Of a DNA stretch of 64,000 nt, positions 25,854 through 63,589 are shown in pieces. The stretch is taken from the sequence record PV805633.1. The stretch is one strand, 5' to 3'. Each line of letters begins with the position of its first letter. Position 1 is the first letter of the stretch. A model generated the notes under the pieces. That model did not search any database. It had not been told where the DNA came from and saw nothing but the letters and a program-made list of their open reading frames with translations. The translations under genes and the position numbers were made by a program. The stretch comes from a phage.

Positions 25854-28800
25854 TTAGTTTACTAAGTTCATCCAAGGGTTTAGGTTGTGAGCACGAAGCC
25901 CCTGACCAAAGCCCCATGAGTAATCCAGACTACCCTTAGCAGCAATACTAAAGATGTTGTCCTGAATAGGTAAGCCAACGTTACCAAACATGGTAGGAGT
26001 TGGAGCCAGCATCGCCATTGCTGCATGTACTGGGTTATTGCGAATCATGGACACTGCAACTTTTGCAGAACGAATCTTAAAGTTGTAGAACCACATCAAA
26101 CCAACACTTTCCATATACCCACGGAAACGACCAGGCAGACGGTCATAGTTAATGAACTCTTCGGTTACACGTCCCAGTGCTTCTTCACGAGTCTTACCTT
26201 TACGCTGAGTCAGTTCATCATAGATGATTGCTTTAGCGATAAAGTCAGAGTACTCAACCGTCTTCTGGATACCCTGGAACAGAGCAGTATCTTTAGTGAT
26301 AAGTGCATAACGACCAGCAGCACGTACAGACTTAGGTAACTTATCCGCCAGCTTTTCCATGTATTCGTGAAGTTTGCCTTCAGTAATCAGGATGTCATCA
26401 CGACCAATACCAGCATCTGCAATTGAAGAGAACTCACCAGCTTCTATCAGAGGCCAGATACTCATACGCTTATGGCTATCAGTAATGGACTGAATCTCAG
26501 CCTTAAGTTTACGAATCTGATTCGGGTTAGTAGCTGCACGTAATTCTGCTTCTGCATCTACCTGACGTAAACGAGATTTAAGGTACTGGTTAATCTCAGC
26601 AGTTTTCTGTGGAATGCTCTTAGCAATGTTCTTAACTGGCACACCACGAGCAACCATCTGGTAAAGGTTAGCCAAAAAGTTAACAACAGGTACGACTACT
26701 GACTTAACTACAATCAGAGTCTTAGCATCTTTAACTAAGTTTTGAACCAGGTTCTCACCACCCATTAAGTACTTATAGGCGCGGTTACCGGCTAAACCCA
26801 GAATAGCTTTTTTAAAAGTATTAAGCGTTTCCGGGGACCAACGAGAATTACCAGACCAAGCATCACCAATCGAAGCTGCACGATAGCCAAGTGCATCATT
26901 CAGCATGTCACGACGTACCCACAGTTCACCCTCACCAAACAGTTTTTCTGCTTTCCGTCGAGTTTCGCTGTTCATCAGCTTAAGAGCATCAGCAGTTACT
27001 GGGTCCAGCTTAGAACCAAAAAGGTTCACGTACTGGGACTTATTAGCAGCAGACATCTTAATGTCTTCCTTGTACATGCTATACAGGTTCTCAATCAGCA
27101 TATCATTGAAACGCTGAGCCTTAGCTTCTTCCACCTGACGTCCACGCCATACACCAATTGCACGGGCAAGATGATTTTCACCTTCAATATGCTTCAGCAT
27201 ATTAGGGTTAATTGATTGCTCATAAGCAACCACATCACCTTTAGCATTATATACAGGCAGCAGTGGTTCATTACCACGTTCACCACGAGCTAGTGCTTTA
27301 GCGATACGGTCTACAGAAGGCTTGTCAGTAATACGACCAGCTACCATGGAACCCATAGTAAAGCCTGTACCGAGGTCTACACCACCAGCAGTATTACGAA
27401 CGTTCTGTAGAATACCTTGTGAGAACGGAGCCTGTGCCTGTACTGGGGCAAAGTAGTAGCTACGTGCCAGACCTCGGTTAGCAGAGCTACCTTGATAAGT
27501 ACCCAGACGAACATAGGACTTCTCTATCAAATCACCAAACTCGCTATCTTCAGCAACAACCAGACTAACACCCTGTTTAGTCTCACTAGGGATATACCCT
27601 TTGTACTGGTTCAGGGTTGCACGCATATTAGATTTGGCTTTAGCCATTTCATCTTTACGCTGCCCAACCAGGTAAGAAGTAGCAAAGTCCATTCCCTCAA
27701 CTTCTGTCTGAGCCAGTGAAGATAACATCTCACGGTCGGACTTGTTCATTGCTTCCAGTGCATACAGGGTAATAAGTTTATCCAGTTGAGCTACATCTAC
27801 AATAGAACGAGTAGTCTTACGTTCACCCAGCATACGAGAGATTGCAGTAGCATTACGCAGCAAGTTTTTACCGACTGTGCCATTAATCATGTACTGAGCC
27901 AGTTGCTTAGATTTACGGTTAATCAGAGGCCAGTTACGACCAGCTTGTTTCTGCAAATCTGCTTCCAGCTTATTCACTTCACGGTCAACAATCTTCTGGT
28001 CTGAAAGCAGGTCACGAATTTCAGCCAGAGACATGGTGTCACGCAGGACAGCTAAGTCAGTTTTACCCATACCAGTGTACATTGCTTTCCACTCATCCTT
28101 AGTCAGCTTACGGCTGAACTTAGATGCGATAGTGGTAGGCAGGTGTTCACGGAACTGCTGACGGTCAGCCTGCACCTGTGCACGGACTGCTTTAATCAAA
28201 TCGTATACAGAAGCATTGCTCTTAGTACGACCGGTTAAATCATTAACCAGGTCATGGAAAGGTTGCCATACTTTACCCTGGTTCATTGCAACCATAACGC
28301 CTTCAGCTACGTTTGCACCATTCTTCTCTGTAGCAATAGCAGCCATTAGTTGTGCAGCATGAGCAGCACCTTTGACCAATGGGTTCTTGGTATTAGCTGC
28401 AACTTCACGAGCACTTTCTAAAACACGAGTAGACAGTACATCAATAGAGTCCACCAAATACTGGTTAGCACGGTCAATAGCATTACCACTAGGAGTAGCA
28501 ACGGAATCATAGAATGACTGTGCATTTAGGCTAGTCTGCATGATTGTTTGAGCCAGTGCATCCATACCTTCCTGTACGTTGGTAGCTTTGGTATCACCTG
28601 CTACACGAGCATTCAGACTAGCCATTGCAGCAGTACCAATGTTAGTCAGCATTGCATCAACGGTATTCCCAGATTTCTTATCTGCTTTCATAACAGGAAT
28701 GTTAGCCAGTACGCTACGTACCTCTTCACTTACCATTGCCAGACCAACAAAGGTAGGCAGTATTGAAGAACGACCCTGTGCATCAAACTCAATATTGTTA

Positions 28801-31800
28801 GCACCCATGATGGTATCGAACTTCTGCTGTGCATAGTAACGGTCAGCAGGGTTAGTACTATCTGGGTCAGTCATGAATGATTCAACAGTCAGGTTCTTAG
28901 TAACGTGTGCATAGTATTCCTGTGCACGAGAAAGAGCAGCCGGACTAATAGCAGCTTCAGTAGCGAGTGCAGCAACAATGTTAGTAAAGAGACGCTGTTC
29001 CTGCATATTCATGGTAAAGCCATGAGCCTGAACATCACGGGTTACTTTAGTTGCGTGCTTTTTCGCATCAGAGAACTTACCTTCACGGATTACTTGCTGT
29101 ACTGGTTCTGAACCAATGTAGTTAGTAATCAGCTTATCAAAGGTCTGTCCTAACTCTTCCAGACGGGTATTGTCACCATATGCTTTGTTATGGAACAAGG
29201 TAGTATCTTTGGCTACAGCAGCCGTAGGAGCCTGACCACGCATAACTACTGAAGAGTTAAACAGTAAGCCAGAGAACATATCATCTGCATTAGCAGGTGC
29301 TTTCTTGCGACCAAATACCAGACGTTTGATTGCTTCATATACTGACTGAACCATGGCTTTCAGTGCAGTGGTCTTCTTCTGCTTACTAATTAATTCACGG
29401 TTAGTTAAGCCCCAAGCCATGTACTCATTCAGTGCAGCAGCTTTAGCCATTGCTGGTTCAATAAAGCCGTTAGACAAGTGACCATTAATGGTATTAAGTG
29501 CATCAGCATATGCTTCACGTACTGCCGGAGATTCATCCATAACATCCAGATTACGGAACTGGTTCATCAAGTCTTCAATATTCTGGACTGCTTCATTAGG
29601 AGTACCCTCATAGTGAGCCAGTACAGATTCAAAAGTAGAAGCATGTACTAATTCATGAACCAGAGTCTCTAGGGAAGGGGTAACTAAGTAGATGGTTTTA
29701 TCATCAAAGTTAGTCCAGCCATACGCATTACCAGCTTCGGCAGCTTCAATATCTTCCGGTGCTGGACGAGTAATGTTCTTCTCAATAGCATAGGCATCCA
29801 GTTGAGCAGGAGTACCGTAAACAACTTTGTAGTCTTTAGCAGCAAGGGATTTCTGTATCTCTTTCAATACTGCTTGCTGTTCTGGAGACATCTCTTTAGC
29901 CAGCTTGGTAATAGCAGTATTAGACAATAGACGTACACCAGACTTAAGTACACGACCAACTTGTTCCATTGCTGGCACTTCTTTAGTAGGTACTTCTTTC
30001 ACTGGATCTGCTTTAGCAGCACGTACTGCATCACGACGCTTATTTAATTCAGCATCAAACAGTTCGTTCAGCTTAGCTACTTGCTGGTCTACAGTCAGTC
30101 CCTCAAGAGAAATTTTACCGTTGTTCACATAAGGAGCACCTACAGCAGCCATCTGGTCAACAGTGGTCTGTACCTGGTTCATTACTTTGTGGCGAATATC
30201 CACACTTAAAGCAATGTTACGCAGGTTACGCTCAATAAGGTTAACACCGGAATTCTTAATCATATCAATCTTATACTGCCTGTCTCCCTCAACGCGACTG
30301 ATATGAGAAAGCTGTTCAAAATCTAAAGCGGAACGGGCAATGTCATCAATTGTCTTATCTGACAACTTATCAAAGTCTACATTCTTCAAGAACTCAGAGA
30401 AGGATTCATATACAGCCTTGATAGGATTCCCCTGCCAGGAAGTGTATACAGCCTCGTTTGCTTTACGACTTGCATCAGTGATGTCACTAATACCAATGTT
30501 CATACCATCAAAGATTTTCAGGGTATTCTTCGGAGCACCTTTCATAGTAGAAAGGGTCTGCATCATCATGCCATCACCAGTACCGATGGTCATAAATGGA
30601 ATACCTGCAACACCTGCTTGTGAAGGAGCATAGATGCTCATTGGCACACGCATACGGTCATCTAAGTTGGTAGCCAGTACTTGGTTAGCAACGTCAGTAC
30701 TCTCACTGCCAGCAAGGTAGAAAGTCTGTGAGCCAGTCTCAATCATTGGAGCCAATGGAGATAATGATTCCTGGATTTCATTCAGTTCTTTCTGTGTTAA
30801 GAAATCACCCTTCTTCCAGGTTGGGTCTTTTTCTTTTTCTGCTAGCTTAGCCTGTACTGCTTGCTGGAACATATCCTGCAATACCAGGGACTGAATCTGA
30901 GTAGCCTTCTGCAAGTTCTCAGTAGAGTACATCAGACCTTCACCAACAGTATTACGGATACCAGTACGCATTGGTTCAACGAACAAATGGAGCATATTCT
31001 CTTGTAAGTTCTTCAGAGCATTACCGGATACGGTAAATTTCTGAGGGTCTAACTTACCAGTCAGAGCACCATCTACTTCCTTAATAAATAACTTACCCTT
31101 ACGCTTAGCTGGAATCTTACCGGTCAGTGCTTCCATAGAAGTAAGGAAAGTATCCAGCATAGCCTGAGCATCTGCCTCAGACGCAGCCTCCTTACCAAAC
31201 ATTGCCATAGCCGGGGAAATGCTAGGGTCAGCAGCACGTGCTTGCAGAACGTCGCTGAAGCGTTCGTAGATGGTGTCAGTAATTGCACTGACCATCTTGC
31301 CAGCAATACCACGAGCACCAGAACCATAGATGGTAATGGTCAGAGGGTTCTTAGCGATACCACGTTTCAGGTCCAGAGTACCATCTTCATTCAGGTTAAA
31401 GTCTTTAATGAACAGGTCCATTAACTTCTGGAGATGATTTATCTGGTTCATAACTGGAACGTTGTTACGGTAAGTAGTACGTAACTCATTCAGTGCTTGT
31501 TGTAGACCATTGGTAGATGCTTCATACAAGTCAACATTATCGTCGATAGAACAATGTTCATTCATCGTTTTACCAGCACGACCGAAAAACAAACCACCTT
31601 TAGCAGTGTTCTTAATCCAGTCTGGGGTGAACTTACCACCAGTCATTAATACCATTGCATTGATTGGGCCGTTGGTTACACCATCAGCTTCAACGTACAG
31701 AGGGGTAGTAAAATTAGCACGGTCATCACTGTTCAGGTAACGGGCATATTCCATCAGAGCCATGAGAGCCACGAAGGATTTGTTATCACCCAGAGAGGTT

Positions 31801-34800
31801 TTCAGAATATCTACTGCATCAGTAGGTAAGTAGCCAGACTTATCAAACTCGACCATCATATCAACAGCAGGTTTCAGATTACCTTCCAGGGCTTTGGTCA
31901 GATTTTCAGACATAGCTTCACGGGACATTTTATGTACCTTGATGCCCAATGCCTGAGCCAGTCCTAGCTGGAAGTCAGAGAACGCTTGGCTGTTTTCATT
32001 ACTCAAGTCGATAGTAGAGAAGGTTGGCAGAATTGCTTCACGAACCAGTTTACTGGATTGTGGGTTATTCTTACCAAGCATCTGCATACGACCTACACGG
32101 GTCATGTTGTAACCGTAGTGGATAGGTGTATCCAGTCCATCCTCTTGTTCTTTTAGCTGATTAATTAAACCAAACAAGGAATCATATGCCATAGACACAG
32201 ACAGGTTTTTACCTTCCAGAGATTTGGCAGTGTTTTCATTCAGCAAATCAGGATTAAGAGAACCAGCACCCATCAGTTCCAGAATGCCGTCTCGACCTAA
32301 TGCTTCATAGAAATTAACCATCGGCATGTGTACACGGAACTCCGTAGCCTGTTCAGCTTTCAGAGCAGCTTTCTGTTCTGGGGTATTCCTAACCGCAGGG
32401 TTACGTAACTGAGTTTGAGCCACAGAAGGAATGTCGTCACCGAAGTACGTTTTCTCTTCCGGGTTTACCAAAACAGCTTCTTCAATTGCTGTAAGGAAAT
32501 TATTAATAGGGTCTTTATCAGCCAACTTATTAATAGTGTACAAACCAATAGTCTTATTAGAGTCCGGGTCAATCTCAGACACATCCAGCATAGTCTCAGT
32601 AACTGCACCCATCTCGATGAGGGAAGACAGAATCTCTGTAGCCATTGCCACTGGAATACCCTTGGTATAACCCAGTGGTGCATTAGGGTTACGGTTTAAA
32701 CCCCAGTAGGATTCAATCTTTTGAGCCAGTGAGTTAGTAGCCTCAATCAGAGTCTGGGCATTATCAAACTCAGCCAGAATACTTTCTGGTAACAGAGATG
32801 CATCTACACCAGTAATAGCAGCTACGTCTTTCATGTCTTTAATGGCAGCATTCTGTGTAGCAGTCAGTCGCCATTGCAGACCGGCAAGTACAGCAGTCTC
32901 TAACAACTGGTCATTGAACTTAAAGGTATCCCCGTCTTTCTCTACGATGTTAAGTAACTTACCACCTACCCAACGGTTAGCCTCAGTACCTTCTGCAAAA
33001 CGTTTACCAACATTTTTATTAGCAAGGAACTTAGCCAGTCGTTCAGACAGAGTAGCCTTCAGAGTTTCCCCAAAGTCCATCAAGTCCTGATAACGTTCTA
33101 ACACATCACCTGCGAGAACGTTATTTTCTTTTTGAGTGAACGCTTCAAAGCGAGCAGCAGAAGACAGTGCTTTCTTGATATCAGCCAAAGGAGATTCAGA
33201 GCCAATGGTACGGGACTTAGGTTCTTCCGGTAAGGTAAATGCTTTCAGGAACTGGTTCGGTGTCTTCTCATTGTTATAGACAGGGAACACTGCTTCCATT
33301 CCAGAAAGGGGTTTGCCACCCACTGTATAATCTGCTTTCAGCTGAGCCAGTGATACTTCATCCTTCTCCACGTTGTTAGTGTTACGACCAGAGGTATCTA
33401 CACCAACCAGTATCTGTGCATTATTAGCTTCAACGAAAGACTGAACAGTATTGAATTGTTCAGCAGTCAGCTTCTGATTATCAAACAGTTGCAGAGATAC
33501 GAATGGTTGTTCACTACCTTTATAGAAGGTAGAGCGAATAGCACCTGTATCCAGAGACATATCACGATAACCATCGTGACCAAATACATCGGACAGGCTG
33601 ATATGGTCGCCATTAGAACCAACCACAGTACCATCAGCAAACAGCCATGGACTCTCCCTACGATCACCATACTTATTAAGAGTTTCCTGTGAAATAGTAT
33701 TTTCTTTCACATAAGCATCTCTCTCAGATTCAGTAGGTTGTTCGACGGTATCCTCATTAGTGGGGGTAGCCTCATCTACAACCGGGCTAGTCTTTTCAGA
33801 CTTAGGTACTTTCTCTTCCTGTACAGGTGTAACTTCTGGCTGGGAGAATGTATTACGTACATAGTTCATAAAATCATTACGTGCTTGAGAAGGAGAAGAC
33901 CATACTTCCCGTGTGCTACGTAAACTAAAGATTCGACCTTCAGGAGTCATTACGTAAGGTACATTTGTTTCACCGTACTTAAATGAAGTGAGCACGTCTG
34001 ACTTACCAGTAACAGTGCTTTCCCCTGGAATGACAATAGTCTTACCACCAGTAGAAGGAACAGCACGAACACCCTCAATATCCTTACCAAGAGAAATATA
34101 CTCTTTACCGTTGTAATCAAAGTACTGACCTATCTGCATATAGGTAGCTTGTTGCTTACCAGTAAACTCAGCAGTTTTCATCTCCGGGCCATTAGGTACA
34201 GACGTACTTTCAGACTTAGGCTTAGATACTTTCTCTGGTTCTGACTTAGACTCTACAGTGTTAGGAGCAGTTTTATTGTTTACCACTGGTTTAGCTTTAG
34301 ATTGTACAGTAGTAGTGTCCTCTTGCACTGGTGCAGGGGTTTCATCAACCTGATTCACTGGTTCATTAGTCTGTTGAGACTGAGTGGCATTAAGACCACC
34401 TTGACGGAACTCTTTAACTACCTGGGCAGCTGGCTTGTTCAGACGTGAATCCAACGAGGTAACTTTCACATGAGAAACATTAAGCTCCGGGTAAGCCGTA
34501 GCAAGTGCGTTAGCAATATCAGCTACGGTCTTAGCTTCCAGCGCTACTTGCTGGGCAAACTTAACAGACTTGGTATCATAAGGATTGACACCGAGGCCAG
34601 TACGACTACGTACCCATTCACGGGTAGGCGTGAGAGCCTGATAATGAACAGACTTATTCTTATCCGCATTCCCCGAAATCAGATGCTCATTCAACGCTCC
34701 GACCTTATTCTGCATGTGCTGGGCGAACTTCATAAAATCGCTCAGATAAGCGGAGGCCAAATCGAAGTTACCAGAGTTATACGCAGAACGAATGCGTTTC

Positions 34801-37100
34801 GCATGTTGCAACGCAGAGTACTGTCCTTCATTAGAACGAGACTCGTCGGTTTTAATCTGTTTACTAACGATGTCTTGACGACGTAAGCCCAGTTCTTCTG
34901 CTTTAGCATCATACTCACGTGCACCCTGTAATAGAGCAGCAGCTGATTGCAGGGCAGCACGTTGACGATTATTCAGTGTAATCTTACCTTCACTCGCATG
35001 CTTCAGAACCATGTTCACTGAATCTGCATCCAGTACTTCTGGAGACATATCAGCAGCCATAGCAATGTTGTTTGCTTGGGCTTGGTTAGCTTCTTCAGTA
35101 GCTTTCAGTTTACCTGCTTCAGCCTGTTCCTGAATCATAGAATGGATGGCACGGAATGCACGAAGTACTTTAGGGGTATTCTGTATGTTAGCCATCAGGC
35201 CGGAGAACTGGTCTACGATTGCAGCAGCAGGAGAACCTTGTTCCAGATTAGCCAGAGCACCTGGGTCACGGTTAATGAAGCTATCCATAGACATGATGTT
35301 GTCATACATCTGGATTGCAGCTTCCATTTGAACGTTAGGGTCTTCAGCAGTATTAACCAGGTCAGCCATCTTCTGAATAGCTTCCACACGGTTAGTGGAA
35401 CCAGAAACAGCTTCACGGATTACTGGGCTGGCTTGTTCCAATTCTACTGGGTCAAACTTCATTGCCTGGGTTAAGTCAGCAGCATACTGGGTAGCAGCAG
35501 CCTTCTCTTCTGGAGTGATGTCCATTGCATCTACTGCTTCCTGTACAGTTGCTTGTGCTTGCTCTGCTTGAGCAGCAGCTTCCTGTGCAGCAGCATTAAC
35601 CGTAGCATCAGCTACAGGGGATGCTTGTTCATTACGCTTAGCAACTTCTTCACCACGTTGAACCAGGATGTTAGTAAGAGGGGATGCAGCTTTAGCTAAT
35701 GTTTTACCAACCAGAGAAGCACCTGCCAGAGTAGTACGAAGAGCGGGGCCAGCAGCAGCACCGGCAGCTTTAACAGTTGCACCTGGAGCTTGAGCAACCC
35801 CAGCACTACCGAAGCCATAGAGTGCACCAAGACCCGCTTGCTCACCGACACCTTTGAGGGTATCTCGGGATGCATCAACATTTTCCTTGATTGCACGGTT
35901 CTGTGCGAACTGACCAAAGCCTGATTGAGTACCCTCTTCAAAAGTCTGAGCACCAAGGTTAGTAAGGGCTGCCCCAGCAGAACCAACCCTCATGGGGTTA
36001 AGTTCAAACTTAGATACTAACGGACCCATAGCAGCAGCAACTGGAGCAGTTAAGCCAGCAGCAATGATACCTGTTTCGGATGCAGTCTGACGACGTGCTT
36101 CATCAGGAGATAAACCATCAGCAATATGTTGTTGGTAAACAGGAGACTTACTTGCCAGTTCTGGATGGGACATCTTCATGATTTCAGAAGCAGTCTGTTG
36201 GTATGCACCACCAGCTTCCATACCACCGATTGCAATAGCAGGTGCAGCAACACGACCAGTAGACAATGCAACCTGTGCAGGACGTGAACCTAACCCAGCA
36301 GCTAAGGTAATACCCTTAACAGCTTTATCACCACCTACCATTACTTTACCGAGTGCAGATACACCACGGATAAGAGGACCACCAGTAAAGAGGGAACCAA
36401 CACCTTCACTCAGTCCATCTGAGGCAGCCATACCATTATCAAGTGTATTAGCAACAGAGTCGAAAGCGTCACGACCAATGCGAGACAGGGAGGCAACCAA
36501 ATCGCTCTCCCCATTTTTGATGTCCTGTTCATAGAGTTTCTGGTTCTTTTGAGCAGAAATCTGGTTCTGATTCTGAACAACTTTACGGGTAGCATTCAGT
36601 GCATCAGACTGTAGACTATGCACGCCTTCATTCAACCAATCCATCCCGGAAGCAATGGTTGCCCCGGCATTATCATTGACCAGACCTGCGCCAAGAGCAG
36701 CAATGCCCCCAAGGGTATTAGCAACACCAAGACCAACACCAGAAAGAGTATCGCCAAATGCTTCTGCGTTAGTACGCTGTTTAGATAAGTCCTGACGTAC
36801 AGCATCCGCAGCATTAGCTCGGCTATTAAGAATCTGTAAACCTTGCTCATTACCGTACTTATTAATGATTTCTAAAGGGGAGGCTTGAGTGAAATCTGCT
36901 TGAAGTGAACCTGGTTCGAATGCACCGATTCCAAGATTACCTACTCGTCCAGTCTGGAGATTGTAAGCATTCTCTGGGGTTAATTGGAAAGGGTTTTGCC
37001 CTTGTGCAGCTTGCTTCTGAGCGGTTGCAGTAGAGACATCGACTTGCTTAGCATTAGTGATGCTGTCTGCGAAACCTGCCAGACGGTCAAATGTTGACAT
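25854..37100 (-). CDS. giant virion-encapsidated RNA polymerase-like protein (N4 gp50-like), ~3748 aa
   Basis: Single uninterrupted 11.2-kb ORF; AGGAAA SD before ATG at 37100 (track starts at upstream TTG 37118); size and position match the N4-type vRNAP. Confidence 0.8.
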   Translation of the reverse strand: MSTFDRLAGFADSITNAKQVDVSTATAQKQAAQGQNPFQLTPENAYNLQTGRVGNLGIGAFEPGSLQADFTQASPLEIINKYGNEQGLQILNSRANAADAVRQDLSKQRTNAEAFGDTLSGVGLGVANTLGGIAALGAGLVNDNAGATIASGMDWLNEGVHSLQSDALNATRKVVQNQNQISAQKNQKLYEQDIKNGESDLVASLSRIGRDAFDSVANTLDNGMAASDGLSEGVGSLFTGGPLIRGVSALGKVMVGGDKAVKGITLAAGLGSRPAQVALSTGRVAAPAIAIGGMEAGGAYQQTASEIMKMSHPELASKSPVYQQHIADGLSPDEARRQTASETGIIAAGLTAPVAAAMGPLVSKFELNPMRVGSAGAALTNLGAQTFEEGTQSGFGQFAQNRAIKENVDASRDTLKGVGEQAGLGALYGFGSAGVAQAPGATVKAAGAAAGPALRTTLAGASLVGKTLAKAASPLTNILVQRGEEVAKRNEQASPVADATVNAAAQEAAAQAEQAQATVQEAVDAMDITPEEKAAATQYAADLTQAMKFDPVELEQASPVIREAVSGSTNRVEAIQKMADLVNTAEDPNVQMEAAIQMYDNIMSMDSFINRDPGALANLEQGSPAAAIVDQFSGLMANIQNTPKVLRAFRAIHSMIQEQAEAGKLKATEEANQAQANNIAMAADMSPEVLDADSVNMVLKHASEGKITLNNRQRAALQSAAALLQGAREYDAKAEELGLRRQDIVSKQIKTDESRSNEGQYSALQHAKRIRSAYNSGNFDLASAYLSDFMKFAQHMQNKVGALNEHLISGNADKNKSVHYQALTPTREWVRSRTGLGVNPYDTKSVKFAQQVALEAKTVADIANALATAYPELNVSHVKVTSLDSRLNKPAAQVVKEFRQGGLNATQSQQTNEPVNQVDETPAPVQEDTTTVQSKAKPVVNNKTAPNTVESKSEPEKVSKPKSESTSVPNGPEMKTAEFTGKQQATYMQIGQYFDYNGKEYISLGKDIEGVRAVPSTGGKTIVIPGESTVTGKSDVLTSFKYGETNVPYVMTPEGRIFSLRSTREVWSSPSQARNDFMNYVRNTFSQPEVTPVQEEKVPKSEKTSPVVDEATPTNEDTVEQPTESERDAYVKENTISQETLNKYGDRRESPWLFADGTVVGSNGDHISLSDVFGHDGYRDMSLDTGAIRSTFYKGSEQPFVSLQLFDNQKLTAEQFNTVQSFVEANNAQILVGVDTSGRNTNNVEKDEVSLAQLKADYTVGGKPLSGMEAVFPVYNNEKTPNQFLKAFTLPEEPKSRTIGSESPLADIKKALSSAARFEAFTQKENNVLAGDVLERYQDLMDFGETLKATLSERLAKFLANKNVGKRFAEGTEANRWVGGKLLNIVEKDGDTFKFNDQLLETAVLAGLQWRLTATQNAAIKDMKDVAAITGVDASLLPESILAEFDNAQTLIEATNSLAQKIESYWGLNRNPNAPLGYTKGIPVAMATEILSSLIEMGAVTETMLDVSEIDPDSNKTIGLYTINKLADKDPINNFLTAIEEAVLVNPEEKTYFGDDIPSVAQTQLRNPAVRNTPEQKAALKAEQATEFRVHMPMVNFYEALGRDGILELMGAGSLNPDLLNENTAKSLEGKNLSVSMAYDSLFGLINQLKEQEDGLDTPIHYGYNMTRVGRMQMLGKNNPQSSKLVREAILPTFSTIDLSNENSQAFSDFQLGLAQALGIKVHKMSREAMSENLTKALEGNLKPAVDMMVEFDKSGYLPTDAVDILKTSLGDNKSFVALMALMEYARYLNSDDRANFTTPLYVEADGVTNGPINAMVLMTGGKFTPDWIKNTAKGGLFFGRAGKTMNEHCSIDDNVDLYEASTNGLQQALNELRTTYRNNVPVMNQINHLQKLMDLFIKDFNLNEDGTLDLKRGIAKNPLTITIYGSGARGIAGKMVSAITDTIYERFSDVLQARAADPSISPAMAMFGKEAASEADAQAMLDTFLTSMEALTGKIPAKRKGKLFIKEVDGALTGKLDPQKFTVSGNALKNLQENMLHLFVEPMRTGIRNTVGEGLMYSTENLQKATQIQSLVLQDMFQQAVQAKLAEKEKDPTWKKGDFLTQKELNEIQESLSPLAPMIETGSQTFYLAGSESTDVANQVLATNLDDRMRVPMSIYAPSQAGVAGIPFMTIGTGDGMMMQTLSTMKGAPKNTLKIFDGMNIGISDITDASRKANEAVYTSWQGNPIKAVYESFSEFLKNVDFDKLSDKTIDDIARSALDFEQLSHISRVEGDRQYKIDMIKNSGVNLIERNLRNIALSVDIRHKVMNQVQTTVDQMAAVGAPYVNNGKISLEGLTVDQQVAKLNELFDAELNKRRDAVRAAKADPVKEVPTKEVPAMEQVGRVLKSGVRLLSNTAITKLAKEMSPEQQAVLKEIQKSLAAKDYKVVYGTPAQLDAYAIEKNITRPAPEDIEAAEAGNAYGWTNFDDKTIYLVTPSLETLVHELVHASTFESVLAHYEGTPNEAVQNIEDLMNQFRNLDVMDESPAVREAYADALNTINGHLSNGFIEPAMAKAAALNEYMAWGLTNRELISKQKKTTALKAMVQSVYEAIKRLVFGRKKAPANADDMFSGLLFNSSVVMRGQAPTAAVAKDTTLFHNKAYGDNTRLEELGQTFDKLITNYIGSEPVQQVIREGKFSDAKKHATKVTRDVQAHGFTMNMQEQRLFTNIVAALATEAAISPAALSRAQEYYAHVTKNLTVESFMTDPDSTNPADRYYAQQKFDTIMGANNIEFDAQGRSSILPTFVGLAMVSEEVRSVLANIPVMKADKKSGNTVDAMLTNIGTAAMASLNARVAGDTKATNVQEGMDALAQTIMQTSLNAQSFYDSVATPSGNAIDRANQYLVDSIDVLSTRVLESAREVAANTKNPLVKGAAHAAQLMAAIATEKNGANVAEGVMVAMNQGKVWQPFHDLVNDLTGRTKSNASVYDLIKAVRAQVQADRQQFREHLPTTIASKFSRKLTKDEWKAMYTGMGKTDLAVLRDTMSLAEIRDLLSDQKIVDREVNKLEADLQKQAGRNWPLINRKSKQLAQYMINGTVGKNLLRNATAISRMLGERKTTRSIVDVAQLDKLITLYALEAMNKSDREMLSSLAQTEVEGMDFATSYLVGQRKDEMAKAKSNMRATLNQYKGYIPSETKQGVSLVVAEDSEFGDLIEKSYVRLGTYQGSSANRGLARSYYFAPVQAQAPFSQGILQNVRNTAGGVDLGTGFTMGSMVAGRITDKPSVDRIAKALARGERGNEPLLPVYNAKGDVVAYEQSINPNMLKHIEGENHLARAIGVWRGRQVEEAKAQRFNDMLIENLYSMYKEDIKMSAANKSQYVNLFGSKLDPVTADALKLMNSETRRKAEKLFGEGELWVRRDMLNDALGYRAASIGDAWSGNSRWSPETLNTFKKAILGLAGNRAYKYLMGGENLVQNLVKDAKTLIVVKSVVVPVVNFLANLYQMVARGVPVKNIAKSIPQKTAEINQYLKSRLRQVDAEAELRAATNPNQIRKLKAEIQSITDSHKRMSIWPLIEAGEFSSIADAGIGRDDILITEGKLHEYMEKLADKLPKSVRAAGRYALITKDTALFQGIQKTVEYSDFIAKAIIYDELTQRKGKTREEALGRVTEEFINYDRLPGRFRGYMESVGLMWFYNFKIRSAKVAVSMIRNNPVHAAMAMLAPTPTMFGNVGLPIQDNIFSIAAKGSLDYSWGFGQGLRAHNLNPWMNLVN

Positions 37101-37164
37101 AGCATGTTTCCTGTTCAAACTTATATCGTATATAGGTAACCTACTCTACAGTAAGCCAGTGTAA

Positions 37165-58548: not shown

Positions 58549-59230
58549 CTGTAATGTCCTCATCTGCACGTACTAGTTTAGAACCAGCAATCTCTTTAGT
58601 AGGTACACCACTATTGATTGCATTAATTTGCTGTTCAGCTAATGCAGCAAGTGTTGCCTTGAGATCAGTCAACCCAGAGTTCTCTCTCAAGTCCAGATTG
58701 ATATTTGTTACCTGGTCTTTTGGTTTAGCTAAATGAGTAAGGATAGAGTTAGCTGCATCACATCTTACCTTCTCACTTACTGCTGTAGTCATCAGTTCAA
58801 CCTGAACATTGATTGCCTTCTGATAGTTGTCTTGGTTCACAATCCATACTGGAACCAGACTTTGTTCCATGATGAGGTTAACTAACTTACCCCTGTGATA
58901 AGCAGAGACATAAGCACTAATATCTTTCTCACTGGTTCCCCGTGCTACAAGTTCTGCTTGTCGGTTAGGGAATGTTTTGAAGTAGGCTTCCTTATTTGAA
59001 TAGCCCATGTGTTTGTAAGTCACATACTGAACTGCATTCATGTAGTCCTGTGTCTTAAACTTACCCTCCTTCATAACACCAGAGTAAGAGATGAAGTTTT
59101 CACGGAATGCTTCAGCAACCAGTTGGTCTTGGGTTATGTTGTTAATTGTGTCTACCAACTCCTGGCTTACACTGTTCTTGAAGTTAGCAGGTAAGGCATT
59201 AATGATCTGCTGCTTAGTTAGCTCTCTCAT
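58541..59230 (-). CDS. hypothetical protein upstream of terL (229 aa), possibly small terminase subunit
   Basis: Position immediately 5' of terL with translational coupling; no motif support. Confidence 0.5.
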   Translation of the reverse strand: MRELTKQQIINALPANFKNSVSQELVDTINNITQDQLVAEAFRENFISYSGVMKEGKFKTQDYMNAVQYVTYKHMGYSNKEAYFKTFPNRQAELVARGTSEKDISAYVSAYHRGKLVNLIMEQSLVPVWIVNQDNYQKAINVQVELMTTAVSEKVRCDAANSILTHLAKPKDQVTNINLDLRENSGLTDLKATLAALAEQQINAINSGVPTKEIAGSKLVRADEDITDV

Positions 59231-59276
59231 ACTTATCTCTCTACAAAGTTATGTCTATTAACGAAGATTCTTTTCT

Positions 59277-59291
59277 TGGGGTGAGTTACCC
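59277..59291 (+). promoter_or_regulatory. short hairpin GGGGTG-AGT-TACCCC (6-bp stem incl. one G-U, 3-nt loop with central G), candidate hairpin promoter
   Basis: Architecture resembles N4 vRNAP promoter hairpins (5-7 bp stem, 3-nt loop); ~110 nt upstream of the first early-type gene. Confidence 0.25.
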
Positions 59292-59401
59292 CTTGAAGAA
59301 ACTCTAACACACAGTTACACTTTAGTCATGATATAGAAAAAGTTCATGATACTAAATAGTATGTAATGTTCCGATGACCCTATTCCCAAAAGGAGTAACC
59401 T

Positions 59402-59692
59402 TTGAGAATCTATATGAGAGTCATCGACTCTAAAGACGAATACTCAGAGATAGACCACACCAAAGCTGGCTTTATGGCTGGTGATATAATCCTTACCCAT
59501 GACGAAGATACATTCCATGAGTTATCTGGAATGATGCTGTTAGAGAACCGTCCTGGTGTTAAAGTCTTAGAACCGCAAGAAACTTACTCTTTAGAAAAGT
59601 CTATTCCATCTCTTGTGTTCTTCACAAAATTACCTCATAGTGTCTCCATCAAACGAAGCAAAGATAGCGTTCGGATGACGGTGATGATGTGA
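59402..59692 (+). CDS. small early-type protein, paralog family member 1 (96 aa; TTG start)
   Basis: AAGGAG 6 nt upstream of TTG 59402; shares a motif with the next three genes. Confidence 0.5.
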   Translation: MRIYMRVIDSKDEYSEIDHTKAGFMAGDIILTHDEDTFHELSGMMLLENRPGVKVLEPQETYSLEKSIPSLVFFTKLPHSVSIKRSKDSVRMTVMM

Positions 59693-59892
59693 TTAGTCAT
59701 ACCGCCTAGTAGACAGTGGCGGTACTCGTAAAGAGTTAATAACTTCTACAGTCAGGGTTCCCCGGCTCCTTTCCTACTCCGTAGGTCTAACGGTACATAA
59801 GTACCTAGGGGGGTGAACTGACCCGTGATTGAAAACGGTAAGGGGTAGGGTCGAGAGGCTCTACCCCATTTCTTTTCTGGAGGAATGCAATT

Positions 59893-60291
59893 ATGAGCAT
59901 CTACGCTTTTGATATTGATATTACTGGAGTACTCCGTAAACAGGAACCCTATTACCTTGGGGAACCAGAAGTAGTAAGTAAGTTCACTACCCCGTGGCAA
60001 ACAGTATTCTTACCTGACTGTGAAGAGTCCCATGAAGTAATTGGTTCTCTTTTCTTATCCAACCTTCAACTTAACACTGTGATATTGTCTGAACCAAGGG
60101 TGTATGACCTTATCTATTATGATGGGTTTAACGAGTTCTTCCCCGGCATACGCTTCTATAAGATAGATGGTTGGGAATTGATAGCTGACCATAACGTATT
60201 TAATAAAACACTTTCCATTTACTTCAGACCTATCCCTAAAGGAAGGAAAATCAATCATGAAATTCAAAATGACTATCCCCAGTTTTGTTGA
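59893..60291 (+). CDS. small early-type protein, paralog family member 2 (132 aa)
   Basis: GGAGG SD; motif TVFLPDCEESHEVIGSLFLSN. Confidence 0.6.
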   Translation: MSIYAFDIDITGVLRKQEPYYLGEPEVVSKFTTPWQTVFLPDCEESHEVIGSLFLSNLQLNTVILSEPRVYDLIYYDGFNEFFPGIRFYKIDGWELIADHNVFNKTLSIYFRPIPKGRKINHEIQNDYPQFC

Positions 60292-60301
60292 GGGGGAATC
60301 T

Positions 60302-60571
60302 ATGTACACAACTGACTTCTCTTTAGAAGAGGTCATGAACAGCAACCCCCAGCAAGTAATCCTGGTTCCTACCTTAGAGAATTATCACGAAGTAAGGGGT
60401 CAACTCTTCTTAGCAGGCAATGACCGTAAGGTTGTATGCATTATCCCACCTTCTGTCTATACCAACTATAACGCTAATGACCCCATACCGTACATGCTGG
60501 TATCCGATGAATACCAATGGGATAGTCGCTATGAGAATGATGAATATCATTACTACTATGTAAGGAAGTAG
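60302..60571 (+). CDS. small early-type protein, paralog family member 3 (~89 aa)
   Basis: GAGGGGGAA SD before ATG 60302; motif QVILVPTLENYHEVRGQLFLAGN. Confidence 0.55.
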   Translation: MYTTDFSLEEVMNSNPQQVILVPTLENYHEVRGQLFLAGNDRKVVCIIPPSVYTNYNANDPIPYMLVSDEYQWDSRYENDEYHYYYVRK

Positions 60572-60574
60572 GGT

Positions 60575-60886
60575 ATGCACCTGTACTGCCTGATTAGCTA
60601 TGCCACTACCTGTTATCTATCCCCGTATACAATGGATAATATCCTGGCAGGTAAGGGGAGTGTTGCCACCATCCTATATGAACCAAGTGAAGAAGCAGAA
60701 GTATTCCTGGGTACTTGCTTAATACTGGGGCAACCTATCCAGTTCATTAAGATAGTGGATTCTGTGGAAATACCGGAGCACACCTGTGTGTACATACTGT
60801 CTGATAAAGAGCCTATGGTAGCTACTACTCTTACAGGTAGACTCATTACCCTTTACCCTTCCTCCTATTTAACTGCTTATAAGTGA
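60575..60886 (+). CDS. small early-type protein, paralog family member 4 (103 aa)
   Basis: Motif ATILYEPSEEAEVFLGTCLILGQ aligned with members 1-3. Confidence 0.55.
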   Translation: MHLYCLISYATTCYLSPYTMDNILAGKGSVATILYEPSEEAEVFLGTCLILGQPIQFIKIVDSVEIPEHTCVYILSDKEPMVATTLTGRLITLYPSSYLTAYK

Positions 60887-61088
60887 GATAGCTACAATAT
60901 TTTTGCATGTCGATTTCATCATAGCTATGTGTAGCTACAGTGGTGTGACTGGGGCTACACCCTTACACTCAACCATCCCCCCCGGTATGTTGACCCTGTA
61001 GCCACTACCCTACCCCACCTTACACGTTACACGTTGCTCCGCAACCTATGGACATGTCGTCCTATCATCAACTATTGGAGCTATCATC
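60887..61088 (+). promoter_or_regulatory. palindrome- and repeat-rich intergenic control region (candidate promoter/operator cluster)
   Basis: Palindromes ATAGCTAT and GTAGCTAC (three TAGCTA cores within 50 nt), direct repeats TACACGT x2 and CTATCATCA x2, -35/-10-like TTGCAT-17-TATGTG. Confidence 0.4.
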
Positions 61089-61412
61089 ATGACTACTACC
61101 GCTACTGTACGTATGACCGCAGGAACTCTGCTGGGTACTGTTAACTCAGCTGCTACTACTGTTGCAGATTCCTTCGGTGCTGCAACAAAAGCAGTTGGTA
61201 TGCTTAATTCTTATGTAAGTACTATGGCAAAGAAACAAGCCATTCGTACTAAATTAGAAATGCATACTTTCGAAAACAAATTAGCTGAAGAAACAGCTAT
61301 GAACGAGACTCTTCGTAAGAAAAGTATCGAAGAATTCTGCAAAGATCCAGAAAACGCTCGTATCTACAACGCAGAATATTCAAGAATAATTGACATCCTG
61401 TCTAAAGACTAA
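61089..61412 (+). CDS. hypothetical protein (107 aa)
   Basis: TGGAG upstream of ATG. Confidence 0.55.
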   Translation: MTTTATVRMTAGTLLGTVNSAATTVADSFGAATKAVGMLNSYVSTMAKKQAIRTKLEMHTFENKLAEETAMNETLRKKSIEEFCKDPENARIYNAEYSRIIDILSKD

Positions 61413-61415
61413 ATC

Positions 61416-61442
61416 AATAGGAGGCTCTTCGAGCCTCCTATT
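61416..61442 (+). other. perfect 12-bp hairpin (AATAGGAGGCTC / GAGCCTCCTATT, 3-nt loop) directly after the stop codon
   Basis: Perfect inverted repeat; no U-tract; the 12-mer AATAGGAGGCTC recurs at 63563-63574 in the terminator. Confidence 0.5.
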
Positions 61443-61501
61443 AAGGGCATTAGATAGATAGATAGTCAGTTCTGTATAAAAAGATAGGAGAGATACCTAC
61501 T

Positions 61502-61648
61502 ATGAGCAAACTAAAAAACGCATTCATGCTGATTGTCAGTGTCCTTGCACTTGTTGCTATGGTTTCCGTATACATTGGAAAACCTCTGGTAAACACTGAC
61601 TATGGTAATGGTCAGAAAGTAAAATCCATCCTGCTAATGGATAAGTAA
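61502..61648 (+). CDS. small membrane protein (48 aa)
   Basis: AGGAGA SD; single TM helix AFMLIVSVLALVAMVSVYI. Confidence 0.45.
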   Translation: MSKLKNAFMLIVSVLALVAMVSVYIGKPLVNTDYGNGQKVKSILLMDK

Positions 61649-61832
61649 AATGTCCTTGAATCTAAATCACCGTAAGAAATTCTGGATATCTTACATACCC
61701 TAAAAGACAACGACGCTCCGCGTCTTATGGATGATGTAAATGCATCCACTAATCATTGAAATTTTATCCTTTTGTTTGGGTGTTCTCACCGACGAGTTCA
61801 CCCGTAATTCACATAAATCTGGAGAGTACAAA

Positions 61833-62216
61833 ATGTCTATTCAAAAATTCACTTTCGGTCAATCTAACGCTGCTGCTACTTCTACTGCTAAAGCTGATAA
61901 ACCTAAAGCTCAGTTCTGGCTGAACATTGGTTATGTAGCTAATGAAGGCTCTGATGATGAGAAATTCATCTCGCTGCCTACTGGTATCCCACTGGATACT
62001 CAGGAACCGCTGCCTACTAACAGCAGCAATGCTGACTTCCGTGCTATGCGTTGTGCACAGAACGATTTGCTGGAACAGTTAATCGAATATGCTCAGAACC
62101 TGAAACCAGGTGAAGAGGGTATCATTAACCTGCAAGTTCAACTTCGTCGTGTGAAAGCAGAGGCTGCTGACATCCCAGCAGACGAGAATAAATATGCTCG
62201 TAAACTGACTTTCTAA
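61833..62216 (+). CDS. hypothetical protein (127 aa)
   Basis: GGAGAG SD before ATG 61833 (track ORF starts upstream at 61740); followed by a strong terminator. Confidence 0.55.
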
Positions 62217-62225
62217 TCAACAACT

Positions 62226-62255
62226 GGACTCCCTTCGGGGAGTCCTTTTATTTTT
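62226..62255 (+). terminator. Rho-independent terminator (GGACTCCC-TTCG-GGGAGTCC + T-tract)
   Basis: 8-bp perfect stem with TTCG tetraloop followed by TTTTATTTTT. Confidence 0.8.
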
Positions 62256-62360
62256 AACTCAGCGATAAACTAAGTAGAGTGTAATCCTACTTTTAGACGA
62301 AGAGTCACTAAAAGTTAAACGTAAACAGAAGCAGATAACTTAGAGTAAGGAGTAATCAAG

Positions 62361-62660
62361 ATGCGTACATTATGTAACCGTTATAACTCACAGAAGTTGA
62401 TTGTTACGTTGCAACCTTGGGGTAGTAAGATGTCATTGGATGCTCGTTGGCAAGTGTCTGTAGAAGGCAAGAATGGCAAATGTCATGACCACTACTTCGT
62501 AGCTAAGCCTACTCGTAAACAAATCCGTAAACTTCACAAAGTACGTAAGCATTACTTACTAAGTAAATGCTACGAATGTGGCAAAAGGATAGAACTAGGT
62601 AAAGAATTTACTTTTGATGATCTCAACTATGCTCACAATAACTGCTTAGGAACTAAATAA
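62361..62660 (+). CDS. small Cys/His-rich protein (99 aa), possible zinc-binding
   Basis: AAGGAG SD; CHDH...CYECGKR...HNNC pattern. Confidence 0.5.
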   Translation: MRTLCNRYNSQKLIVTLQPWGSKMSLDARWQVSVEGKNGKCHDHYFVAKPTRKQIRKLHKVRKHYLLSKCYECGKRIELGKEFTFDDLNYAHNNCLGTK

Positions 62661-63551: not shown

Positions 63552-63589
63552 AGGAGTCCTCCAATAGGAGGCTCCTATTTTTTATTTTT
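63552..63589 (+). terminator. Rho-independent terminator (10-bp stem with 1-nt bulge, AATA loop, long T-tract)
   Basis: AGGAG(T)CCTCC-AATA-GGAGGCTCCT followed by ATTTTTTATTTTT. Confidence 0.75.

Follow-up and report, generated by a model that had tools for sequence, protein, structure and literature searches.

In bacteriophage N4, early transcription is independent of the host polymerase, and the virion RNA polymerase, which is injected, recognizes each early promoter as a DNA hairpin in the template strand (PMC4496689). These promoters are conserved from -17 to +1 and harbor a GC-rich heptamer centred at -11 with inverted repeats on either side; the polymerase reads template bases -11A/G, -10G, -8G and +1C, and the other stem bases need only to be paired (PMC4496689). 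Descriptions of the N4 P1 promoter (Haynes and Rothman-Denes 1985, Glucksmann 1992 and Gleghorn 2008, as reviewed in PMC4496689), of the hairpin mechanism and of N4-type terminal repeats go back to the 1980s, and the promoter-bound polymerase has been solved structurally. For P2 of N4, the published template oligonucleotide contains ...CCAAAAGAAGCGGAGCTTC... (PMC13492108). The product of the first early gene of N4, gp1, is reportedly required for the use of middle promoters (PMC4496689). As for the genome ends, the terminal repeats of N4 measure 390-440 bp (PMC3670811), and in the G7C-like phage IME11 the termini were mapped from read-start frequencies, the opposite terminus being located 401 bp away (PMC3896407). 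We compared these systems with the interval 60887-61088 of the window, by which we mean the whole stretch of 64,000 nucleotides that was analysed.

We assign the sequence record to Gamaleyavirus (Schitoviridae), as a G7C-like phage of the N4 type with a circularly permuted assembly, because the gene order around the junction is that of G7C and because the window contains an ORF for a virion RNA polymerase of 3754 aa. Over 1.4 kb around the interval, the window is 96% identical to Escherichia phage vB_EcoP_G7C, and the same 1.4 kb matched 69 N4-like records. In G7C, the matching sequence is found at the extreme right of the linear record, under a feature annotated as 'contains terminal repeat' that is separated by 59 bp from the end of gp71.2; the record itself opens with terminal-repeat sequence, with gp1 at base 145 and gp2 next. 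The window thus shares with G7C the order gp71.1, gp71.2, repeat, gp1. It differs from G7C in the third palindrome of the spacer, which is missing in G7C (ATGGCTGT), in the 11-nt core of that spacer, in the lack of gp1.2 and in the lack of ~85 bp situated 3' of gp1. N4-type terminal repeats, P1 and the hairpin mechanism are already known, and the locus is an orthologue in a G7C-like phage. The genes and terminal features of the junction are the following.

60575-60886, plus strand: gp71.2-like ORF, rightmost gene of the genome map (ORF list and G7C annotation)
60944-60946, no strand: predicted physical left end of the virion DNA, where the direct terminal repeat would begin (by homology)
60945-61347, no strand: putative direct terminal repeat of ~403 bp, present as one collapsed copy in the assembly (right boundary placed by homology alone)
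60953-61003, no strand: nested inverted repeats GGCTACA/TGTAGCC and TCAAC/GTTGA around a poly-C run (by comparison of the arms between lineages)
61089-61412, plus strand: gp1, the first early gene (ORF list and G7C gp1 annotation)

The first-pass annotation, which was made from the letters only, had described the interval as lying between early genes. This applies to the downstream neighbor, gp1, whereas the upstream one, gp71.2, is the last gene at the right end of the map. The gp71.1-like and gp71.2-like ORFs upstream of the spacer (60257-60886) encode 104 and 103 aa, and their counterparts in Mimir124 are two tandem CDSs of one family (phrog 12606), so the pair may have arisen by tandem duplication at the right end. 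In N4, this place is occupied by a different gene, gp72. On the other side, the stretch of G7C that follows the gp1 stop codon and is missing from the window (G7C 470-555, compared with window 61413-61440) holds two hairpins, a small one (CCCCAGAAATGGGG) and one that resembles a promoter, the third of its kind (AACGC-TCC-GCGTT), in which C instead of G stands at the predicted +1.

We then placed the end of the genome by alignment to phages with known or annotated ends. Window position 60946 (TGACTGGGGCTACACCC) was the counterpart of base 1 in the record of G7C (TGACAGGGGCTACACCC) as well as in that of N4 (TGGTGGGGCTACACCCC). The read-start pile-ups of IME11, GTGGCTGGGGCTACACCC, TGTGGCTGG... 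(TGTGG...) and TGGCTGGGG... (TGGCT...), aligned to positions 60945, 60944 and 60946, respectively, and the other IME11 terminus, as the reverse complement of AATCTTTGCAGAAATCTTCG, aligned to 61328-61347 with 2 mismatches. Similarly, Mimir124 carries an annotated short direct terminal repeat of 403 bp starting at the equivalent of ~60945, and the records of PD38, PhAPEC7, SP5M and St11Ph5 open at the equivalent of 60946-60953. We infer from these alignments that the left terminus of the window phage is located at 60944-60946 and that its repeat spans ~60945-61347, the exact cut position in this phage being a prediction as well. The right boundary of the repeat is uncertain, as G7C annotates a looser region of 1160 bp as 'contains terminal repeat'. 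The predicted end resembles N4-type genome ends, which have short direct terminal repeats of ~400 bp and a defined left end: the terminal sequence of the window, TG(A/G)C(T/A)GGGGCTACACCC, is homologous to the mapped ends of IME11 and to the first base of the records of N4 and G7C, and the predicted repeat of ~403 bp compares with 401 bp in IME11 and 403 bp in Mimir124. However, the ends of the window phage are placed by homology, the junction being continuous in the assembly, with a single collapsed copy of the repeat.

Just inside the predicted end, a poly-C run (60977-60983) is enclosed by two nested inverted repeats, GGCTACA at 60953-60959 with TGTAGCC at 60997-61003, and TCAAC at 60969-60973 with GTTGA at 60989-60993. 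The arms vary by lineage (TACACCC/GGGTGTA in G7C, GACTA/TAGTC in Jgk1 and AGTACC/GGTACT in Klebsiella phages), and they bracket the poly-C all the same. The bracketing by inverted repeats exceeded that found with shuffled flanks in five of the six lineages. The terminal fold was no more stable than shuffled sequences (single-sequence z = -0.3 and -0.9), and when RNAalifold was applied to the 70 nt at the genome start, the only pairing was between the invariant GGGG and the poly-C, with no covariation. The length of the poly-C ranged from 6 to 12 across relatives (7 in the window, 11 in K57alpha1.2 and 12 in PE007), which could reflect real variation or homopolymer sequencing error. We also observed four copies of the pentamer TACAC within 90 nt of the genome start, at window positions 60955-61034 (GCTACACCC, CTTACACTC, CTTACACGT and GTTACACGT); N4 likewise has four TACAC, plus an inverted copy.

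Between the inferred left end, which is some 90 bp away, and gp1, the window carries a hairpin of the P1 type. The elements of this early promoter system are listed below.

25854-37118, minus strand: virion RNA polymerase gene, 3754 aa, the expected reader of the hairpin promoters (full-length match to the solved N4 virion RNA polymerase)
61020-61034, plus strand: tandem TTACACG repeats directly 5' of the P1 hairpin, also present in N4 P1 (sequence comparison)
61033-61045, plus strand: P1-type hairpin promoter GTTGC-TCC-GCAAC (sequence, covariation, the rules in PMC4496689 and the P2 oligonucleotide in PMC13492108)
61050, plus strand: putative +1 G of the transcript (C in the template), 11 nt 3' of the loop centre
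61050-61088, plus strand: gp1 leader with a 5' stem GGAC-ATGTC-GTCC (61050-61062), the CTATCATCA pair and a Shine-Dalgarno GGAG (61077-61080) (sequence, conservation)
61712-61729, plus strand: second hairpin promoter GACGC-TCC-GCGTC, upstream of gp2, with predicted +1 G at 61729 (same system)

The P1 site folds on both strands as a 5-bp stem with a 3-nt loop, as expected for N4 early promoters, whose stems measure 5-7 bp around a loop of 3 nt. Its heptamer, GCTCCGC, occupies 61036-61042, which puts the loop centre (-11) at 61039, and the functional hairpin is the one on the template (minus) strand, 5'-GTTGC-GGA-GCAAC-3', where the heptamer reads GCGGAGC. For the numbering, we relied on the N4 P2 template oligonucleotide, whose sequence ...CCAAAAGAAGCGGAGCTTC... 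is the exact complement of N4's GAAGCTCCGCTTCTTTTGG; together with the -11G convention, it sets +1 at 11 nt from the loop centre, so that G 61050 would be the transcription start in the window phage. All published sequence determinants are present, namely the heptamer at -11, a template loop conforming to 5'-G(-10) G/A(-11) A(-12)-3', the template bases -11G, -10G, -8G and +1C, and the G:C pair closing the loop. GC-NNN-GC hairpins with 5 or more stem pairs were searched for throughout the window, and those that also had a TCC loop and YTATGG with a G at +11 were retained. Only two sites in the 64 kb displayed the full signature, with loop centres at 61039 and 61718, both of them pointing rightward and located just upstream of gp1 and of gp2, whose ORF begins at 61740 in the ORF list. 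Furthermore, the polymerase encoded in the window has kept all five published hairpin-reading residues (K114, R119, W129, D901 and R904).

Comparison with relatives was in agreement with this assignment. The heptamer was unchanged in 22 of 23 relatives, and all 23 had TATGG, while the stem differed between lineages: at the orthologous P1 it is GTTGC/GCAAC in the window, G7C, E20, N4 and Klebsiella phages, (A)CATGC/GCATG(T) in most Gamaleyaviruses, where it thus reaches 6 bp (ACATGC/GCATGT) instead of the GTTGC/GCAAC of the window, and GACGC/GCGTC in one metagenomic relative. Among 19 distinct hairpin promoters, 98.9% of the stem cells were paired compared to 18-54% in slid controls, with two-sided changes in three of the five pairs; since this set had been pre-picked for stems of at least 4 bp, the paired percentage is inflated, and the orthologous P1 series is the cleaner evidence. 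The free energy of the P1 hairpin was unremarkable (-3.6 kcal/mol, z = -1.5). Compared to P1 of N4 (GTTGC-TTC-GCAAC), the window promoter has the same position before gp1, ~90 bp from the left end, the same GTTGC/GCAAC stem, the same upstream TACACG tandem, the same TATGGACATGT start region and the same architecture of a GC-rich heptamer centred at -11 in a 5-bp stem with a 3-nt loop. It differs in the loop, which is TCC (template GGA) as in N4 P2 instead of TTC (template GAA), both A and G being allowed at -11. The window promoter is a further example of how N4 hairpin promoters evolve, with a stem that changes freely and a heptamer and start site that are fixed. In PD205 (386-438) and PE007 (388-440), we noticed a 27-nt insertion, TGCTTGACTCACTTCGTTCGTCAGCGA, that splits the upstream arm of P1 and leaves a stem of only 4 bp; part of this insertion (ACTTCGTTCGTC) is also found 5' of P1 in a more distant metagenomic relative.

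A promoter had indeed been proposed for the interval in the first-pass annotation. There is one, but it is located ~110 nt further right, at 61033-61050, and it is of the virion-polymerase hairpin type and not of the sigma-70 type. The hairpin at 61033-61045 had not been mentioned at all, and the reported TACACGT tandem (61021-61027 and 61028-61034) is the conserved upstream flank of P1.

We thus consider it highly probable (around 88%) that the interval represents the junction of the right-end unique DNA with the terminal repeat, followed by the P1 hairpin promoter, in an N4-like phage of the G7C type. According to this model, the terminase would cut at ~60944-60946 during packaging and thereby generate the left end of the virion DNA, and the DNA to the right of the cut would be the first to enter the cell. 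Negative supercoiling would extrude the template-strand hairpin with its 5-bp stem and 3-nt loop, the injected virion RNA polymerase would recognize the loop (-11G, -10G) and the stem (-8G), and initiation with GTP at 61050 would lead to transcription of gp1. In vivo, a promoter of this class would be expected to depend on gyrase for extrusion of its hairpin, to be activated by E. coli SSB and to initiate in the presence of rifampicin. The second hairpin copy, at 61712-61724, would drive gp2. The two sets of direct repeats would find their place in the same scheme, the TTACACG tandem as the upstream flank of P1 and the CTATCATCA pair as part of the gp1 leader and ribosome-binding region. The conserved blocks of the spacer, listed below, are left unexplained by the promoter or by the terminus as such.

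60887-60944, no strand: unique spacer of 58 bp following the gp71.2 stop, with three TAGCTA and TTGCAT-17-TATGTG (sequence, alignments)
60893-60908, plus strand: conserved AT-rich block TA(Y)AATATTTTTGCAT (alignment columns 6-12 invariant)
60909-60919, no strand: hypervariable 11-nt core of fixed length between the conserved blocks (alignment)
60920-60945, plus strand: conserved block CATAGCTATGTr..GCT..AGTGGTG, abutting the predicted cut site and containing ATAGCTAT and GTAGCTAC (conservation counts)

The motifs that had drawn attention to the interval are all present in the sequence, within 1-2 nt of where they had been reported, including the TAGCTA cores at 60889, 60922 and 60932. The description of the region as palindrome dense holds insofar as the clustering is real, but the effect is modest. 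Nowhere else in the 64 kb do three TAGCTA fall within 50 nt (P~0.007 if the 31 sites were placed at random), four 6-mer palindromes fall within 60887-60946, whereas only 0.3% of 60-nt windows hold that many, and three 8-mer palindromes fall within 202 nt, a number reached by 2.3% of windows. The first 8-mer is not palindromic in the window itself. Conservation in the 23 relatives was confined to the middle one, ATAGCTAT (60921-60928), which is identical and palindromic in 16 of them and is the one conserved palindrome; the third, GTAGCTAC (60931-60938), is identical in none and palindromic in a single one. Homology among relatives restarts at ~60892 regardless of the upstream gene, and in the spacer alignment the spacing was fixed, with zero indels across 17 Gamaleyavirus sequences. 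The T-run of the AT-rich block is kept even in N4 and the Klebsiella phages, and the N4 spacer is homologous but diverged at the conserved blocks, with TTCTTA in place of TTGCAT and ATAGTTAC in place of ATAGCTAT.

The proposal made for these motifs was a host sigma-70 promoter, TTGCAT-17-TATGTG, with a -10 region overlapping operators (ATAGCTAT and GTAGCTAC) for a dimeric phage regulator. As letters, the element exists, with TTGCAT at 60903-60908, a 17-nt spacer and TATGTG at 60926-60931, and some of its features would suit a promoter: TTGCAT is identical in 18 of 23 relatives and lies at a fixed distance from ATAGCTATGT, the 11 nt between the two are hypervariable as in a promoter spacer, and the conserved ATAGCTAT could be an operator. 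However, TTGCAT agrees with TTGACA, and TATGTG with TATAAT, at three of six positions each (6/12 in total), the -10 hexamer does not end in the essential T (nor does TATGTA, its form in most relatives), and our scan did not call the element. Over 59200-62400, sigma-70-like sites were not enriched either (5 found compared to 8.0 expected in shuffles). TTGCAT is missing in N4 and the Klebsiella phages, and the independence of N4 early transcription from the host polymerase also argues against this reading (PMC4496689). The operator part found no more support than the promoter part, given the lack of conservation of GTAGCTAC and of palindromy in the first 8-mer. A TAGCTA-TGTG-TAGCTA hairpin was rejected, as it showed no two-sided change and its paired percentage, which relies on T·G pairs, equalled the shuffled expectation; a dyad symmetry across the variable core was rejected as well (63% paired compared to 64% in the slid control). 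We therefore regard a sigma-70 promoter with operators as very unlikely. The more general fallback offered at the time, another protein-binding or origin-like element, is right in that a DNA element recognized by a protein is present, but the specific proposal was not borne out. A small protein encoded in the interval is less likely still, to the point of being negligible. Short CDSs are annotated over the equivalent stretch in Bas96, UE-M6, VLCpiP4b and Mimir124, and the window has an ORF of 32 aa at 60903-61001, but this ORF starts with TTG and crosses the predicted physical end of the genome, its poly-C varies from 6 to 12 C between relatives, with a change of frame as the result, and hypervariable sequence lies in front. 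We rejected this ORF because it spans the terminus and because poly-C indels break its frame, and the short CDSs annotated across the terminus in relatives are probably spurious. In terms of annotation, the record should open at ~60945 with the ~403-bp stretch as direct terminal repeat, P1 and the gp2 promoter should be entered as virion-polymerase hairpin promoters, and short ORF calls that cross the terminus should be dropped.

Because the conserved blocks abut the cut site, a role in terminase recognition or end processing appears the likeliest one for them, and it would extend the explanation by junction and P1 rather than replace it. The signal for terminase recognition, cleavage or end processing at the concatemer junction would then comprise 60893-60908, 60920-60945 and the invariant TGGGGCTACACCC just inside the end. 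The blocks directly adjoin the predicted cut site, homology restarts just before them whatever the upstream gene, their spacing tolerates no indels in the 17 Gamaleyavirus sequences, and the block is single-copy in the window, as expected for a packaging signal. On the other hand, the N4 spacer has diverged although N4 cuts at the homologous place, and we did not find a description of an N4-type pac signal in the literature. Since N4 is diverged at these very blocks, recognition may lie partly or mainly inside the repeat, in the invariant TGGGGCTACACCC. We hence propose only tentatively, as a possibility that falls well short of even odds, that the blocks act in this way. The same caution applies to the idea that TA(Y)AATATTTTTGCAT, CATAGCTATGTr..GCT..AGTGGTG and the lineage-variable inverted repeats around the poly-C together constitute an undescribed left-end signal for the terminase or end-processing machinery of N4-type phages. 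The terminal repeat of T7 is flanked by pac elements, and a promoter reads toward the repeat. We take T7 to be comparable as a direct-terminal-repeat phage, presumably with a related terminase and with conserved unique sequence immediately outside the repeat, although the likeness to the window is loose and serves as an analogy only. The T7 concatemer junction has no sequence similarity to the window, and a required promoter or pac function at the window would be proposed by analogy only. The conserved blocks before the terminus are in any case a candidate signal for how N4-type phages define their left end. A further reading of the AT-rich block, which we find doubtful, is that its T-run is a terminator, possibly vestigial, of the rightward gp70-gp71.2 operon, or that the block is an AT-rich phage promoter firing into the repeat. 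The same T-run has a GC-rich hairpin (AGGAGGT...ACCTCCT) immediately 5' of it in pSb-1, Moo19, a metagenomic relative and Klebsiella phages; the only sigma-70-like element called at this place, TTAACT-18-TACAAT at 60869-60898, matches at 9/12 positions in the window and at 10/12 in G7C; and TA(Y)AAT is widely conserved. However, no GC-rich stem precedes the T-run in the window and no terminator was called within 60887-60945, the relatives that combine hairpin and T-run here all having another gene upstream. As a core of middle promoters, TATTTTTR was rejected, with 7 sites compared to 6.5 expected and none in the middle-gene cluster at 1-25,800, and no matching motif was enriched in intergenic gaps.

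Other searches of the spacer and its surroundings gave similar results. ATATTTTTGCAT was rejected as a recurring promoter class, as it has a single exact copy and near matches were fewer than expected. The k-mer analysis of 18 intergenic gaps returned only words of the terminator type (AATAGGAG and similar) and nothing resembling the spacer, a Rfam covariance-model search of 60400-61900 on both strands gave no match at E <= 1, and we did not find an explicit consensus for N4-type middle promoters in the literature.

Downstream of P1, the two CTATCATCA copies were found at 61062-61070 and 61081-61089, 1 nt to the right of where they had been reported. The second copy spans the gap between the Shine-Dalgarno GGAG and the gp1 ATG at 61089. 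Within Gamaleyavirus the two copies are conserved, and N4 retains them only in part. The two predicted early transcripts both open with a stem exactly at +1, GGAC-ATGTC-GTCC for the first and GGATG...CATCC (61729-61747) for the second, and N4 P1 and P2 likewise begin with a stem at +1 (GGACATGTTGTCC and GGATGAAGTAATGCATCC). These stems could be a conserved 5' stem-loop of the early mRNAs or a feature of the template DNA. The gp2 ATG of the ORF list, which is also the one annotated in G7C and N4, lies 11 nt past the predicted +1 of its promoter and within the 5' stem. The real start of gp2 may be the internal MSIQKFTF..., which is preceded by GGAGAATA in the window and by GGAGAGTA in N4 (region 61740-61832). 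The terminators of the early region (61414-61444, 62226-62245 and ~63560-63580) have the word AATAGGAGGCTC...GAGCCTCCTATT in common, and (TAGA)n-like tracts follow some of them (61450-61466). Finally, the AATAGGAGG hairpin of the early terminators also precedes the T-run of the spacer in pSb-1, Moo19 and Klebsiella phages.
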